Virus record (IMG/VR): IMGVR_UViG_2974674860_000001
Span: 1-64,000 of that record
DNA from: a virus
Lineage: Duplodnaviria; Caudoviricetes
Direction: 5' to 3' (one strand)
Length of the DNA: 64,000 nucleotides
In this document: positions 35,949 to 44,056 of the stretch, in pieces
Numbering within the stretch: position 1 is the stretch's first letter
How the letters are laid out: each line of letters starts with the position of its first letter
Notes under the pieces: model-generated
What the model was told of the DNA's origin: nothing
The model's input: only the letters and a program-made list of their open reading frames with translations
Database searches by the model: none
Made by a program: the position numbers and the translations under genes

Positions 35949-36314
35949 ATGGCATCGACCTACTCCGACGCCCACCGAAACGCATGCGCGAACGCCATCT
36001 GCGCACTCGGCAACCGCATCGGCCTCTACGTCGGCAGCACCCGCGTCGGCACCGTCTACGCCGACACCACGTGGGCCGCGGCCGTGAAGGTCACCGAGTC
36101 GTCCGTCGATAAGGCGCAGAGCACCGGATCGACCGTCACGATCACCGTGCCGGCGGGCACCGTGGCCAATGGAACCGTGATCAACAAGTTCGGCGTGCAC
36201 AACGGCTCGACCCTTCTACGCACCGAAGACCTGCCGCTGTCGCTGACTGTCAACGACGGCGGGCAGGCCTTTAGTGTGGACATCACCCCGATCTTCAAGT
36301 ACCGGGGCGAGTAG
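35949..36314 (+). CDS. minor tail-associated protein
   Basis: beta-rich small protein at the end of the tail operon. Confidence 0.7.
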   Translation: MASTYSDAHRNACANAICALGNRIGLYVGSTRVGTVYADTTWAAAVKVTESSVDKAQSTGSTVTITVPAGTVANGTVINKFGVHNGSTLLRTEDLPLSLTVNDGGQAFSVDITPIFKYRGE

Positions 36315-36674
36315 CTATTCGGTGGCGGCTTCGTATTGCTCGATGATGTCGTTCGGGATGCGGCCCTTCGGATTCACTTCGATGCCGTTGGCCACGGCCC
36401 AGTCGCGCACATCCTTCATGGTGTAGGCGGCATGGGCTGACCCGTTCGAGCCGTTCGCCGGTGCGCCCGTGGACGGCTGACGTTTGCGGCCGCCGATCTT
36501 CGTGGCGGTCTCGACCAGCTTGACCATCTGCTTCTCGAGTTTCTTGTAGTTCGCGGCGCTGGTCTGCACCTCGTAGTCCACCCCGAGCCAGCTGACCTGG
36601 GCGCGCATCATCGTCTTCTCGTCGAGCAGTTTTCCGTCGATGTCGTCGTAGTACTCGATCTTGTCCCGACGCAT
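36315..36674 (-). CDS. lsr2: Lsr2-like nucleoid-associated DNA-bridging protein
   Basis: N-terminal YYDDIDG..YEV dimerisation domain; C-terminal VRDWAVANGIEVNPKGRIP (RGR-like hook). Confidence 0.9.
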   Translation of the reverse strand: MRRDKIEYYDDIDGKLLDEKTMMRAQVSWLGVDYEVQTSAANYKKLEKQMVKLVETATKIGGRKRQPSTGAPANGSNGSAHAAYTMKDVRDWAVANGIEVNPKGRIPNDIIEQYEAATE

Positions 36675-36720
36675 TTACTCCCTCTCTCTGTACTACTGCT
36701 TGCGGTTCTACTTCATCACA

Positions 36721-36769
36721 CACATGAGCCCCGGCTGGAATCTTCGTTGATCCGGCCGGGGCTCATGTG
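36721..36769 (-). terminator. 15-bp perfect hairpin between the mini-ORF array and lsr2
   Basis: CACATGAGCCCCGGC / GCCGGGGCTCATGTG; weak U-tract. Confidence 0.7.
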
Positions 36770-36921
36770 GATGGTGGATGCTTCACTCTGGTGCTGCCTA
36801 CTCTGTTCGCGTCCTGCAGATGTTGATCGCGGACGGCCATGGTGGGCCTCGTGTGCGCATCGTCCTCCTTTCGTGTTTGCGAATGTCGGCGCGGGGTTGA
36901 TGGTGGGCTTCTGGCGTTCAC
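36763..36921 (-). CDS. mini-ORF 3 MNARSPPSTPRR...VKHPPST (52 aa); its stop lies inside the downstream hairpin
   Basis: GAAAGGAGAAGCC directly upstream of GTG. Confidence 0.5.
   Translation of the reverse strand: MNARSPPSTPRRHSQTRKEDDAHTRPTMAVRDQHLQDANRVGSTRVKHPPST
36798..36860 (-). CDS. mini-ORF 4 MRTRGPPWPSAINICRTRTE
   Basis: GAAAGGAGGACG directly upstream of ATG. Confidence 0.55.
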   Translation of the reverse strand: MRTRGPPWPSAINICRTRTE

Positions 36922-36942
36922 GGCTTCTCCTTTCGATCGATG

Positions 36943-36981
36943 TCAAGTTCGGGGCGTGTCTGGTGGGCCTCGGGTGTTCAT
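36943..36981 (-). CDS. mini-ORF 2 MNTRGPPDTPRT
   Basis: GAAAGGAGAGC directly upstream of ATG. Confidence 0.55.
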   Translation of the reverse strand: MNTRGPPDTPRT

Positions 36982-36998
36982 GCTCTCCTTTCTCCTGA

Positions 36999-37040
36999 TC
37001 ACAATCTGATTGGTGATGGTGGGCCTCTGCTGGAGGTCAT
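36999..37040 (-). CDS. mini-ORF 1 MTSSRGPPSPIRL
   Basis: AAAGGAGAAG directly upstream of ATG. Confidence 0.55.
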   Translation of the reverse strand: MTSSRGPPSPIRL

Positions 37041-37061
37041 CTTCTCCTTTGTTAGTTTCTG

Positions 37062-37113
37062 TGTTGCGCGGCTTGTGAGACAACAATAAGTCACCAATTC
37101 GAGACGCGCAACA
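37062..37113 (-). promoter_or_regulatory. leftward SigA-type promoter TTGCGC-17-TATTGT overlapped by two operator-like motifs
   Basis: -35 at 37111-37106, -10 at 37088-37083; motif copies 37098-37113 (-) and degenerate 37062-37080 (+). Confidence 0.7.
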
Positions 37114-37189
37114 GTTGAGTGCACATTTGTCCTCCGTTCATTGGACGTCAACGTGAGAGTTGCCACCCGAATAGCGCCCCTAGCTGCAC

Positions 37190-37205
37190 TGTTGCGTGTC
37201 TCGTA
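37190..37205 (+). promoter_or_regulatory. operator-like motif at the rightward xseAB operon promoter
   Basis: TGTTGCGTGTCTCGTA followed by extended -10 TGtTAGTGT. Confidence 0.75.
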
Positions 37206-42697: not shown

Positions 42698-44056
42698 ATG
42701 GATGAAACGGGCACACGAGCGAAGCGCGGCAGCGGCGGTATTCGATACCGGGCCGACAAGGACATCTGGATCGCCAGTGAAACCGTCACGCTCAACGGGA
42801 AGAGGACGCGACTCGAAGCCACGGGCAAGACCGAGACGAAGGCCCGCGCTGCCATCGCGAAGAAGCGCAACGAGTTCATCCGCGGGAAGAAGAAGAAGGC
42901 GAGCCGAGGAACCGTCACGGAGTGGCTGAACAAGTTCACCGACGAGATCGCGATCCATGACATCCGGCCGGGCACGATGCGCTCGTACAAGAGCGTCATC
43001 AACAACCACATCATTCCGACGATCGGAGACAAGAAGCTGGCCACCCTGGAGCCCGCCGACGTGCGCACGATGCGCGACGAGATCATGCGTCGCTGTGAGG
43101 CCGCGGACAAGGCGGGAACATCCAAGCGCAAGGGTGCCGGGCCGAGCCGCGCTCGATACGCACAGACGGTCCTGTCGGTTGCGCTCGCGAGAGCCGTCCA
43201 GGATGAAGTGATTGATCGCAACGTGGCGAACAAGGAGTACGTGAAGAAGCTGCCCGCTCCCGACAAGGCAGTGGCCGCGCTCGATGCCGATCAGGCGAAG
43301 CGGTTCCTGCGCGATGTAGCCCGCAGCGAGGGCACCAACGCATCGCGGTGGGCGTTCGCGTTCCTGACGGGCGCACGGCAGGGCGAGATCCTCGGACTGG
43401 AGATCAACCGGCTCGACTTCACCTTCGACTCGTTGAAGCTCACCAAGCAGCTCCAGATCCTGCCGAACCGCCACGGCTGTGGTGAGCAGAATGAAGACGG
43501 GACATGGCCGTGCGGGAAGACCGCTCCCCGTGCGTGCAAAGACCGTGAGTTCGACATCTCGCCGACGTACGCCGAGCAGGTGAAGGTGCTCCACGGAAGC
43601 CTCGCCCTGGTCCCCACCAAGACGAAGATGTCGAAGCGCGACCTGCCGATGGTGGGGCCGTTGAAGAAGATCCTCCAGGCGCACCTGGAGGCCACGGCGC
43701 ATATGCCCAACCCGCACGGCCTGGTGTGGCGAAACGAGGACGGTTCGCCGCTGCAGCCGCGCAGTGACTTCGATACGTGGTCGGACGCTCTGACGAAGAG
43801 CGGCTTTGATCACATCAAGCTGCACTCGTCGAGGTCGAGCACGGCCAGCATCATGAGCGACATGGGAATCGATCGCGAGGTGATCGCGGAGATCCTTGGA
43901 CATACCAATCTGGAGACCACGGCTGGCTACGTTGCGGTGGGTGACAAGTTCCGGCGGGATGCGCTCGGAAAGGTCGGCGGTGCGCTGATGCTGGAGCTGT
44001 TCGGAGATGACGATGGTGACGACAACGCCCCGACGACAGAAGCCATCGGGGCGTGA
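42698..44056 (+). CDS. int: tyrosine integrase
   Basis: N-terminal arm-binding domain; GARQGE (R), KT, HSSR, LGHT, TAGY; RBS AGGAG before ATG42698. Confidence 0.95.
   Translation: MDETGTRAKRGSGGIRYRADKDIWIASETVTLNGKRTRLEATGKTETKARAAIAKKRNEFIRGKKKKASRGTVTEWLNKFTDEIAIHDIRPGTMRSYKSVINNHIIPTIGDKKLATLEPADVRTMRDEIMRRCEAADKAGTSKRKGAGPSRARYAQTVLSVALARAVQDEVIDRNVANKEYVKKLPAPDKAVAALDADQAKRFLRDVARSEGTNASRWAFAFLTGARQGEILGLEINRLDFTFDSLKLTKQLQILPNRHGCGEQNEDGTWPCGKTAPRACKDREFDISPTYAEQVKVLHGSLALVPTKTKMSKRDLPMVGPLKKILQAHLEATAHMPNPHGLVWRNEDGSPLQPRSDFDTWSDALTKSGFDHIKLHSSRSSTASIMSDMGIDREVIAEILGHTNLETTAGYVAVGDKFRRDALGKVGGALMLELFGDDDGDDNAPTTEAIGA

Follow-up and report, generated by a model that had tools for sequence, protein, structure and literature searches.

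The window analysed here, a stretch of 64,000 nt, belongs to a temperate, Gordonia-type phage that carries an integrase gene. On the minus strand, the region preceding lsr2 is most likely a leader of ~400 nt of the phage lsr2 mRNA, and is A-rich, U-poor and nearly unstructured. The protein encoded downstream matches both the Pfam Lsr2 dimerization domain (E 3.8e-11) and the Lsr2 DNA-binding domain (E 1.6e-13), and is 67-69% identical to the Lsr2 proteins of phages Bantam and Mollymur. From promoter to gene, the locus comprises the following features (SD, Shine-Dalgarno sequence).

37111-37106, minus strand: promoter -35 hexamer TTGCGC, inside a copy of the phage-wide CTGTTGCGYRTCTCG motif (37100..37114)
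37083..37088, minus strand: promoter -10 hexamer TATTGT, 17-nt spacer from the -35
37062..37073, plus strand: partial inverted copy of the promoter motif, operator-like, within the first 15 nt of the leader
36999..37050, minus strand: unit 1, SD AAAGGAG at 37050-37044, ATG at 37040, MTSSRGPPSPIRL, TGA
36943..36993, minus strand: unit 2, SD AGAAAGGAG, ATG at 36981, MNTRGPPDTPRT, TGA
36763..36934, minus strand: unit 3, SD GAAAGGAG, GTG at 36921, MNARSPP..., 52-codon frame
36798..36873, minus strand: unit 4, SD GAAAGGAGG, ATG at 36860, MRTRGPPWPSAINICRTRTE, TAG
36763..36786, minus strand: unit 5, Arg-less, GTG at 36786, MKHPPST, TGA at 36765-36763
36714..36776, minus strand: terminator-like hairpin, GC core GAGCCCCGGCCGGA / TCCAGCCGGGGCTC, U-enriched tail AUGUGUGUGAUG at 36725-36714
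36315..36674, minus strand: lsr2, 119 aa, SD GAGAGAGGGAG at 36688-36678

Transcription is predicted to start at ~37076 (A). The first four units each contain AAAGGAG 3-5 nt 5' of the start codon, with units 2-4 carrying GAAAGGAG, and their starts are 59, 60 and 61 nt apart. The encoded peptides begin MTSSRGPP, MNTRGPP, MNARSPP and MRTRGPP, with Arg specified by AGA, CGA, AGA and CGA in turn and Pro-Pro by CCA-CCA throughout. The five units occupy frames 0, 2, 2, 0 and 2. Unit 3 continues in frame through unit 5, which lacks a strong SD, so that the two share a TGA, and the TAG of unit 4 lies 11 nt 5' of the unit 5 GTG. The shared TGA sits within the 5' arm of the hairpin, whose arms (36776-36751 and 36739-36714) are 26 nt each and 85% complementary, with a loop of 11 nt. 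The hairpin is followed after just 47 nt by lsr2, which leaves no room for another promoter in between. The original prediction had described the promoter, the four evenly spaced mini-ORFs with these peptides, the alternation of Arg codons beside a constant CCA-CCA, and a fifth Pro-Pro frame stopping inside the hairpin ahead of lsr2, and reading of the sequence bore out each of these. Its further statement that all of the codons are rare stands for AGA, which makes up 3% of Arg codons, and less well for CGA and CCA, at ~12% each.

The array stands out from its surroundings. In long, high-GC3 frames of this genome only two of 130 Pro-Pro pairs are CCA-CCA. Within the array's 200-nt stretch fall four of the 13 CCCACCA sites and three of the four GAAAGGAG sites of the window, and across the whole 90.5-kb genome the pattern of SD, start, 2-8 codons and CCACCA is matched by the four array units only. 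The array is present without differences in two other public assemblies, so it is no assembly artefact, and three public DNA runs likewise show no differences in it. General-purpose searches do not recognise it. Tandem Repeats Finder called no array at the units, because they share the SD-to-CCACCA core and not their full length. Comparison with Rfam, at E up to 10, gave sub-threshold chance matches only, and ARAGORN detected no tRNA either in the window or genome-wide. A strict promoter/terminator scan called neither the promoter, which scores 7/12 sigma-70 consensus matches in a simple scan and was not called, nor the hairpin, the latter because of its 11-nt loop and imperfect U-tract. Elsewhere in this genome, a 13-codon MTSTTRGPP frame at 89609 is without equivalent in relatives. 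ORFs that cross the array on the opposite strand (window 36747-36998 and others; gene 43 of Bantam) were rejected, as the repeat lies in differing frames and they are unannotated in close relatives.

The CTGTTGCGYRTCTCG motif occurs 16 times in the window, where 0.9 matches would be expected, and 18 times genome-wide; three copies of this phage-wide motif adjoin the array region. An inverted-repeat search paired 37062..37073 with 37102-37113 as inverted repeat I4, and the inverted copy is kept as ACGCAACACAG in Bantam and Mollymur. At the equivalent of the -35 position Bantam has TTGCAT and Mollymur TTGCGT, each 17 nt before TAnTGT, and at positions matching the -10 the relatives carry TAATGT, TAGTGT, TATAGT or TAAACT.

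In Bantamvirus, Mollymurvirus, Oneupvirus and Smoothievirus, the lsr2 operon is likewise preceded by a promoter, one to four RxPP units and a hairpin. Sharing of the design by four other genera is not due to chance; lsr2 itself is at most 72% identical at the DNA level (Bantam, Mollymur), and the Lsr2 proteins of Oneupvirus and Smoothievirus are only ~35% identical. The Arg-less last frame is common to these genera except Smoothievirus, which has a single unit and no frame ending at the hairpin. In place of unit 5, Bantam and DatBoi have MQEEPP-TAG, Mollymur has MEEPPG-TGA and OneUp has MTPAPPEKD-TGA, and each of these frames finishes at or within the base of the hairpin: the stop is inside the stem in the window, Mollymur and OneUp, and 2 nt before it in Bantam and DatBoi. 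Placement of the last stop in or at a terminator-like hairpin before lsr2 is supported in four of five lineages.

In these relatives, the array came to light solely by reading the DNA upstream of lsr2. A blastn search with the array against a phage collection returned lsr2 matches only, and among viral contigs a search for related loci based on Lsr2 yielded no relative. A pattern of three CCACCA sites gave at least 120 chance matches in viral contigs, none with SD mini-ORFs; a stricter three-unit pattern recovered only Bantam itself there and, in genome contigs, 32 matches that either were coding repeats or contained no SD-led mini-ORFs (e.g. a His-rich repeat and CPR repeat proteins). In the whole genomes of five relatives, in-frame SD-led units matching an RxPP mini-ORF pattern were confined to the lsr2 leader. 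Matches near 90.5 kb in Bantam and DatBoi have no SD and lie in a hairpin after a promoter motif. Within the limits of the patterns used, no array turned up outside this phage group. No publication describing the element was found.

Comparison among the 14 distinct units of the five lineages bears on what is under selection. Starts are restricted to ATG, GTG and TTG at a fixed distance from the SD. Arg is kept in 14/14 units via AGA, CGA, CGG and CGC; Ser is kept via AGC and TCG, which belong to two unrelated codon families; and the residue preceding Arg is Ala, Thr, Pro or Ser, with several codons used. The x of RxPP is G, S, D or E only, giving RGPP, RSPP, RDPP and REPP. Conservation of the peptides is confined to their first 7-8 residues, beyond which the tails vary in sequence and in length (8-52 aa). 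Changes are limited to valid starts, synonymous Arg codons and the AGC/TCG exchange at Ser. Together these features support the view that the units evolve as translated mini-ORFs around an RxPP arrest motif.

Two alternatives meet this evidence directly. In the first, the repeats would be untranslated, with TGGTGGGCC and CTCCTTT serving as DNA or RNA sites for a phage or host protein, for example regulator sites by the promoter motif. CCACCA is indeed invariant as nucleotides, the base after it is U or G in 18/18 units counted in a leader with 9% U, and the three motif copies are close by. Nevertheless, variation of the kind just described, with a fixed SD-start distance, argues against binding sites; the period ranges over 57-69 nt (87 before the last frame of OneUp) with no helical phasing, and no RNA structure recurs. 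We regard this reading as extremely improbable. In the second, which is very unlikely, the units would encode small peptides or pieces of one repeat protein. Start-to-start intervals are all multiples of 3 in Bantam, DatBoi, Mollymur and OneUp; all Mollymur units lie in one 94-codon frame that stays open as far as the hairpin, and in DatBoi the frame of unit 1 continues into unit 2. Against a protein product, the units of the window are in different frames, conservation ends after the first 7-8 residues with differing tails, every unit keeps its own SD and start, and ribosomes would have great difficulty in translating a protein that contains four or five RxPP motifs.

The RNA of the leader offers few structural landmarks. 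Leaders are 31-35% A and 7-13% U, and apart from the terminal hairpin they fold no better than shuffled sequences (z -2.6, -1.2 and -1.0). The GC-rich hairpin is present in 5/5 lineages, and the five tails together hold 28 U in 60 nt, in interrupted tracts. No alternative antiterminator helix was found in four lineages, folding without the 3' arm giving energies like those of shuffles and weaker ones in Bantam, and no helix masking the lsr2 SD was seen in the fold. Two RNA-based suggestions of the original prediction fail on these grounds. A GGA-repeat protein sponge of the CsrB/RsmZ type is rejected, as no repeated GGA-presenting hairpins occur, leaders fold like shuffles outside the terminal hairpin, and there is no Rfam match. 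A ToxIN-like type III toxin-antitoxin layout is likewise rejected: the units are neither near-identical nor structured, there is no Tandem Repeats Finder array, and the downstream protein, with both Lsr2 Pfam domains, is not a ToxN-like RNase.

Ribosome-bound stabiliser leaders exist in Gram-positive bacteria, and parked ribosomes might correspondingly guard the 5' region of the lsr2 mRNA from RNase J/E decay or Rho loading, the hairpin being a stability or processing element. An unstructured, A-rich, U-poor leader, in which C outnumbers G in the case of the window, Bantam and DatBoi, would lie open to Rho and RNases if ribosomes did not cover it; strong SDs and early stalls would give long ribosome residence; and uncoupling at polyproline exposes rut sites (PMC5021804). 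This shielding role is nonetheless rather improbable, since the C-over-G bias is missing in Mollymur, OneUp and Smoothievirus, since a stabiliser requires no Arg, no particular Pro codon and no stop placed in a hairpin, and since the U-enriched tails favour termination.

The sequences show the anatomy of this locus, its conservation and its pattern of selection; arrest, termination at the hairpin and the direction of control are inferred. The reading we favour, which is about equally likely to hold or to fail, is that the leader senses translation by means of minimal RxPP arrest mini-ORFs and so sets hairpin read-through into lsr2. Each unit would recruit one ribosome via its 7-9-nt Shine-Dalgarno sequence, and that ribosome would arrest five or six codons into the frame, its P site occupied by fMet-x-x-Arg-x-Pro-tRNA and its A site by Pro-tRNA. 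The arrest would be of the RAPP/RGPP type, at the peptidyl-transferase centre, and would be strengthened by CCA-only usage, decoded by scarce tRNA-Pro(UGG). A ribosome stalled at codons 6/7 (7/8 in unit 1) would still lie over its own start, and with 41 nt or more to the next start each unit could hold one ribosome without collision. Ribosomes escaping the last arrest unit would run on or re-initiate into the Arg-less Pro-Pro frame. A ribosome at the stop in the 5' arm would block folding of the hairpin, and transcription would read into lsr2; with ribosomes lagging behind the polymerase, the hairpin would form and transcription end. Because there is no alternative antiterminator pairing, the ribosome itself would have to be the antiterminator. 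Lsr2 output would then report cellular speed at CCA-CCA diprolyl sites.

Several published results bear on such a scheme. In mutagenesis of ApdA and ApdP, Arg is irreplaceable and Gly is best at the next position, with Ser, Asp, Pro and Glu partly permissive and Val so in one ApdP assay; RGPP, RDPP and RSPP belong to the tetrapeptides that bacterial proteomes avoid most (PMC12992588). The x residues of the array, G, S, D and E, are a subset of this permissive set and so match the arrest motif. Conservation fades ~2 nt past the second CCA, the expected A-site codon of a RAPP-type arrest, and Bantam and DatBoi differ mainly directly 3' of CCACCA. In E. coli the tRNA for CCA is limiting and CCA tunes diprolyl pausing (PMC8129111), and stalling at diprolyl sites breaks the coupling of translation to transcription and makes intrinsic terminators act more often (PMC5021804). 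Of the ribosome-stalling attenuator originally proposed before lsr2, the translated RxPP mini-ORFs and the stop in a terminator-like hairpin, the latter in 4/5 lineages, are borne out by conservation, but arrest itself remains an inference, because in known RAPP peptides the motif depends on several residues on its N-terminal side and here three or four precede Arg. The EF-P dependence suggested along with it is doubtful, published RAPP/RGPP arrests being refractory to EF-P (PMC12992588), although the Arg-less last Pro-Pro frame could depend on this factor. No member of the EF-P or Pth families is encoded in the phage genome.

Several points count against the attenuator. A long arrest would bring ribosomes late to the hairpin, so that nearly all transcripts would terminate; a simple attenuator has no need of four units; the loop of the hairpin is 11 nt long and its U-tract imperfect; and the Smoothievirus layout combines one unit with no frame ending at the hairpin. 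Moreover, all 36 Pro codons counted across lineages are CCA, and arrest alone leaves the invariance of CCA-CCA unexplained, because ApdA and ApdP use CCT-CCT and CCG-CCA. The main rival, which we consider unlikely, addresses this last point: the leader would act in trans as a minigene-like trap for ribosomes and tRNA-Pro(UGG), with control of lsr2 secondary. Most transcripts would stop at the hairpin to give an abundant RNA of ~350 nt, and each unit would park a ribosome with two tRNA-Pro(UGG) or shed short peptidyl-tRNA-Pro, depleting the scarce tRNA and some ribosomes and so reprogramming host or phage translation. Such a trap accounts, unlike arrest alone, for a single rare codon pair at 36/36 Pro codons, and also for the multiple units, very strong SDs and collision-free spacing; the hairpin with its U-rich tail would yield a discrete RNA, and the phage has no ARAGORN-detected tRNA and no Pth. 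Rare codons within the first 8 codons, and the lambda bar minigenes, inhibit translation through peptidyl-tRNA build-up and tRNA sequestration (PMC2490762). However, the one unit of Smoothievirus would be a weak sponge, depletion would harm the phage too, ~12% of whose Pro codons are CCA, and the constant linkage to the lsr2 operon, with the last stop inside the hairpin, points to a role in cis. Equally improbable is a collision-free "ribosome parking lot", in which up to four ribosomes, one per unit, on six- or seven-residue RxPP chains, each with two tRNA-Pro(UGG), would either starve CCA decoding in trans, and thereby reprogram translation in the host, or form a multi-step delay line whose escape time would set the timing of Lsr2.

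Judged by its sequence, the element is most likely a miniature translation-sensing switch of repeated units, of a kind not yet described. The known RAPP/RGPP arrest peptides, a recent and active topic, are to our knowledge all long sensor proteins, and the prevailing view is that residues upstream must assist the four-residue motif. If chains of 6-7 residues arrest, they would define a minimal arrest unit, six or seven residues being enough for RAPP-type arrest. The array would also be a natural instance of repeated arrest sites on a single RNA and of codon-specific arrest tuning (CCA, tRNA-Pro(UGG)), and would extend arrest-peptide regulation to phages. As the regulated gene is an Lsr2-type xenogeneic silencer in an integrase-bearing phage, the element could make lysogeny or silencing decisions depend on how translation stands in the host. 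It could further serve as a compact regulatory part for actinobacterial synthetic biology.

Known systems share parts of this design. Type III toxin-antitoxin loci have the same order of direct repeats, hairpin and ORF, but ToxI repeats are near-identical, structured, untranslated and cut by ToxN, whereas the array units share the SD-to-CCACCA core only and are unstructured. The ermBL, ermCL and cat/cmlA leaders arrest at chains of <10 residues near the start and control a downstream gene; they need an antibiotic in the tunnel and unmask an SD, whereas the array has no helix over the lsr2 SD. The lambda bar minigenes (PMC2490762) are, like the array, phage-encoded combinations of SD, start and very short frame, and the rare codons of the array, at positions 4-8, are compatible with such a layout. 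The bar minigenes consist of two codons and a stop, with drop-off at the stop, in contrast to the 8-52 codons and conserved internal RxPP of the array frames.

In its peptides, the array resembles the RAPP-like arrest peptides (ApdA, ApdP, ApcA, SecM with RAGP, CruR and seven Streptomyces lividans uORF products), which are common in Actinomycetota and share with the array a core of R-(G/A, less well S/D/E/P)-P-P (PMC7897499, PMC10951233, PMC10987492, PMC12992588). Arg is irreplaceable in known members and kept in 14/14 units of the array and its relatives; in both, arrest is expected with motif codon three in the P site and four in the A site, and the element lies upstream of the controlled gene on the same strand. 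Known members are 100-200 aa long with a signal or membrane segment, and carry the motif once per gene, near the C-terminus; the array repeats it one to four times as separate mini-ORFs, always with CCA-CCA. The former need 5-12 residues before the motif, where the array has three or four including fMet; ApdP requires residues 125-130 and ApdA 108-119, and the motif alone is held to be insufficient, yet in the ApdP structure only ~3 residues before RAP are ordered. Known RAPP-like arrest is relieved by pulling on the nascent chain, whereas the array chain, 6-7 residues at the predicted stall, cannot emerge from the tunnel. As to a sensor that relieves the arrest, no signal peptide, membrane segment or ligand site is present in the array, whose tails past Pro-Pro are unconserved. 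The array also differs in residing in a phage, and in preceding a terminator-like hairpin rather than an SD-masking helix.

In regulatory layout, a parallel is provided by the pyrBI-type attenuators, whose terminator is blocked by the ribosome directly. The array differs from them in its tandem upstream arrest units, which have no counterpart there, in its imperfect U-tract, and in a signal that would be diprolyl/CCA speed and not nucleotide or amino-acid supply. The attenuator feature of a stop within ribosome reach of the terminator 5' arm is present in the array and absent in Smoothievirus. Common to both is a short translated leader, with its own SD in the array, that ends in or at a terminator hairpin, that of the array being terminator-like only; and in both, without an antiterminator helix, read-through depends on how fast the leading ribosome moves compared with the polymerase, as is here proposed for the array.

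The anatomy that the original prediction described upstream of lsr2, on the minus strand, is borne out. A promoter (TTGCGC at 37111-37106, a 17-nt spacer and TATTGT at 37088-37083) is followed by four units whose start codons (ATG or GTG), at 37040, 36981, 36921 and 36860, are spaced by 59, 60 and 61 nt and preceded at 3-5 nt by AAAGGAG; the Shine-Dalgarno sequence (SD) reads GAAAGGAG in units 2-4 and unit 4 has the longer GAAAGGAGG. The encoded peptides start with MTSSRGPP, MNTRGPP, MNARSPP and MRTRGPP (Arg-x-Pro-Pro, RxPP), with Arg encoded by AGA, CGA, AGA and CGA in turn and Pro-Pro always by CCA-CCA. A fifth, Arg-less frame (GTG 36786, MKHPPST) ends at TGA 36765-36763, which is also the stop of unit 3, inside a hairpin whose core lies 47 nt from the start of lsr2; the identity of that gene is confirmed by Pfam matches to both Lsr2 domains.

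Hairpin:
36776-36751 and 36739-36714, minus strand: the two arms, with the stop of the fifth frame and unit 3 within the 5' arm

The pattern 'SD, start, 2-8 codons, CCACCA' occurs at these four sites only in the whole genome (90,490 bp), and an identical array is present in two other public assemblies. All the codons concerned had been called rare, a description that is partly accurate (AGA 3% of Arg codons, CGA and CCA ~12% each); CCA-CCA accounts for 2 of the 130 Pro-Pro pairs in this genome.

The neighborhood of the array also carries copies of a motif, CTGTTGCGTGTCTCG, that occurs 16 times in the window against 0.9 expected, and 18 times genome-wide.

Copies of CTGTTGCGTGTCTCG:
37189-37203 (+), 37100-37114 (-) and 37062-37073 (+, partial): beside the array
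75, 3366, 3794, 4288, 25431, 50927, 53004, 57337, 58772, 60054, 60146, 60758 and 62029: elsewhere in the window

The motif lies nearly always directly upstream of a TAnnnT -10-like hexamer at a variable spacing of 9-17 nt, several copies precede leaderless ATG starts, and three flank divergent promoters next to the array. The motif is also found in Bantam, DatBoi and Mollymur, and is probably a phage regulator site or a phage-specific promoter element. A variant of it precedes a second SD-led mini-ORF of the same genome, MTSTTRGPPRPDA with SD GGGAGGTGA, at 89609-89568 (minus) in the largely non-coding right-end region (L166), outside the window. This frame uses CCG-CCT, not CCA-CCA; nothing equivalent is seen at the right ends of the Bantam, DatBoi, Mollymur, OneUp and WilliamBoone genomes, and the frame may be due to chance.

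The phage genome is complete (64.8% G+C), the window being its first 64 kb, and ARAGORN found no tRNA genes in the window or the whole genome. Because a tyrosine integrase is present at 43.6 kb, the phage is probably temperate, a lifestyle that bears on the timing of lsr2 expression.

Integrase:
43592-43939, plus strand: tyrosine integrase domain (PF00589, E 1.3e-14, Pfam), inside a 563-codon open frame

The nearest relatives in a public phage collection are the Gordonia terrae phages Bantam, SpeedDemon and DatBoi (Bantamvirus) and Mollymur, with the DNA-level match confined to lsr2 (69-72% identity). They share with the window a gene order in which tail genes occupy one strand and lsr2 alone the other, followed by an intergenic region of 490-610 bp, where the array lies on the minus strand, and then by divergent small genes and exonuclease VII. 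A palindromic hairpin at 36217-36280, ~35 nt past the lsr2 stop, lies in the 3' end of a convergent tail-region ORF (35949-36314) and has weak chance Rfam matches on both strands; it is likely the terminator of lsr2, and perhaps of the late operon too.

The same construction is conserved across five genera. Relatives were chosen by lsr2, independently of the motif, and the sequence upstream of lsr2 was then read.

Mini-ORFs upstream of lsr2 in relatives:
Bantam, SpeedDemon, DatBoi: RxPP units MFNPRGPP, MNARDPP, MNARDPP (DatBoi MNTRDPP); last, Arg-less frame MQEEPP-TAG
Mollymur: RxPP units MIQPRGPP, MNARSPP, MGARGPP, MNARDPP; last, Arg-less frame MEEPPG-TGA
OneUp (Oneupvirus): RxPP unit MRAREPP, twice; last, Arg-less frame MTPAPPEKD-TGA
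WilliamBoone, ClubL (Smoothievirus): RxPP unit MKAREPP, once; no last Arg-less frame
Unit starts: L001 (Bantam) 2711-2897, L002 (Mollymur) 2573-2837, L007 (OneUp) 718-868; window 37040-36786
ORF between hairpin and lsr2: L005 and L006 (Smoothievirus) 948-1478 and 1032-1478, L007 993-1466

In all lineages the units lie 40-70 nt downstream of a sigma-70-like promoter and are followed by a strong GC hairpin. The Lsr2 proteins of Oneupvirus and Smoothievirus are just ~35% identical to that of the window. In these two genera one extra ORF (148-176 aa, of no known Pfam family) stands between hairpin and lsr2; here the leader heads a two-gene operon. Rabbitrun, whose lsr2 lies in a different setting, has no RxPP unit. 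Smoothievirus leaders also show repeated TAGACAGA motifs around the promoter and, at ~860-900 of L005 and L006 between the single unit and the hairpin, a strong SD (AGAAAGGAG) that is orphaned, as no usable start codon follows at a suitable distance. In Bantam, gene 43 (L001 2715-2864, opposite strand, a 49-aa hypothetical protein) overlaps the array; it is probably a false gene prediction there, and SpeedDemon and DatBoi lack the annotation.

The start-to-start intervals in relatives are all multiples of 3 (Bantam and DatBoi 66, 57, 63; Mollymur 66, 69, 63, 66; OneUp 63, 87), and in Mollymur all units fall in one 94-codon frame that ends inside the hairpin. The window units, unlike those of Bantam, Mollymur and OneUp, lie in frames 0, 2, 2, 0 and 2. 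The shared frame possibly arose through in-frame duplication of units, or is kept because read-through or re-initiation must stay in frame. It would also suit a peptide or repeat protein as the product, a very unlikely reading that is contradicted by the frame breaks in the window and by the unconserved tails.

The comparison of amino-acid with nucleotide conservation, which had been suggested as a check, yielded the variation pattern of translated frames among 14 distinct RxPP units aligned on CCACCA. Start codons are ATG, GTG or TTG only; Arg is kept through four codons, including an AGA/CGN exchange that changes the first base; where x is Ser, the window has AGC and Mollymur TCG; and the residue preceding Arg is Ala (GCA, GCC, GCT), Thr (ACC, ACA), Pro or Ser. 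The SD itself varies (AAAGGAG, GAGAGGAG, AAGGGGGG), with its distance to the start held. The stretch from the SD through the second CCA is highly conserved, ~2 more bases are weakly so, and conservation then ends; the tails that follow run from 1 to 45 codons without similarity, and most differences between Bantam and DatBoi, otherwise near-identical here, fall directly after CCACCA. Given this cliff and the dissimilar tails, selection seems to cover everything until the second Pro codon reaches the A site, and nothing later. The units are very probably translated RxPP mini-ORFs under selection; untranslated binding-site repeats would leave the codon-level pattern unexplained and are hardly credible.

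A purely protein-level reading is countered by the Pro codons, which are CCA in 36 of 36 cases across lineages. The base after CCACCA is U in 11 and G in 7 of 18 units, never A or C, in leaders of ~9% U and ~64% A+C, although probabilities for CCA and for this base ignore shared descent and are indicative only. This preference points to a constraint on the nucleotide sequence immediately 3' of the A-site codon. The sequence at this point is frequently CCACCAUCA (window 36840-37023 and units of relatives).

The leaders contain 31-35% A and 7-13% U (genome 17-18% each) and, minus the terminal hairpin, fold barely better than shuffled sequence (z -2.6, -1.2, -1.0). Being near-unstructured and having no Rfam match, they argue against the type III antitoxin or GGA-sponge alternatives, that is, a structured ToxI/CsrB-type RNA, and fit SDs that are always accessible. 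A leader serving as a shield from RNases or Rho would account for the composition; it leaves Arg and the codon choice unexplained, and is improbable. The hairpins have GC cores of 12-19 bp, each with a tail enriched in U downstream (28 U among the 60 tail positions of five lineages). Actinobacterial intrinsic terminators with imperfect U-tracts usually look like this, although a strict terminator scan did not call the hairpin. Without its 3' arm, the 5' arm pairs no better than shuffles do, which therefore gives no RNA antiterminator. The stop of the last frame lies inside the stem in the window, Mollymur and OneUp, and 2 nt before it in Bantam and DatBoi. This final Pro-Pro frame has only a weak SD; window unit 3 and the last RxPP frame of Mollymur read into it in frame, and window unit 4 and the last RxPP frame of Bantam stop 9-11 nt ahead of its GTG.

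There is about an even chance that the element is a translation-sensing leader of lsr2. The strong SDs would load ribosomes onto the units, and RxPP on CCA-CCA would delay or arrest them with a chain of 6-7 residues, such that only timely ribosomes would reach the stop within the 5' arm, keep the hairpin from forming and let polymerase read into lsr2. In E. coli, stalling at diprolyl sites breaks the coupling of ribosome to polymerase and thereby raises termination at intrinsic terminators (PMC5021804). The distance from the start to the first Pro codon is 15 nt, or 18 nt in first units, and 41-54 nt separate this codon in the P site from the next start. By standard footprint sizes, an arrested ribosome would still cover its own start, preventing a second from loading behind it, and 41-54 nt would just suffice for an adjacent initiation complex; thus the array could carry one ribosome per unit without collisions. 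The best rival, though an unlikely one, is a minigene-like trap, in which an abundant ~350-nt RNA holds ribosomes and tRNA-Pro(UGG); were arrest long, transcription would terminate at the hairpin almost every time. The trap is the sole idea to explain both why CCA-CCA never varies and why there are several units, and lambda bar minigenes and start-proximal 'hungry' codons provide a phage precedent (PMC2490762). In E. coli the CCA-reading tRNA is in limiting supply, and CCA serves to raise diprolyl pausing; the codon is even less common in high-GC actinomycetes (2% in S. venezuelae; PMC8129111).

Among the closest known systems are the arrest peptides ApdA and ApdP. In their systematic mutagenesis Arg is irreplaceable, Gly at the second position equals or betters Ala, and Ser, Asp, Pro, Glu and, in one ApdP assay, Val leave partial arrest; RGPP gives the most robust and least context-dependent arrest, and EF-P does not relieve RAPP/RGPP-type arrests (PMC12992588). 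The phage x residues (G, S, D, E) all fall inside this permissive set. Bacterial proteomes avoid RGPP, RDPP and RSPP more strongly than most other tetrapeptides, and RAPP/RGPP uORFs precede diverse genes in Actinomycetota (PMC12992588). On two points the phage units do not fit this class straightforwardly. According to the same study, the motif does not suffice by itself and an adjacent N-terminal region is required (PMC12992588); another summary describes a minimal RxPP as enough in a genetic screen and only ~3 residues before RAP as ordered in the ApdP complex. ApdA and ApdP also use CCT-CCT and CCG-CCA where the phage units have CCA-CCA, and therefore arrest as such does not require the latter. 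A literature search found no publication on a tandem RxPP mini-ORF element, and a survey of phage Lsr2 loci treats GC drops ahead of lsr2 in phages of other clusters and no RxPP element (PMC8612146). RAPP-type arrest and ribosome-occluded attenuators are both known kinds; the phage element, with its arrest and termination predicted from sequence, is a combination of the two that differs in its minimal, tandem form.
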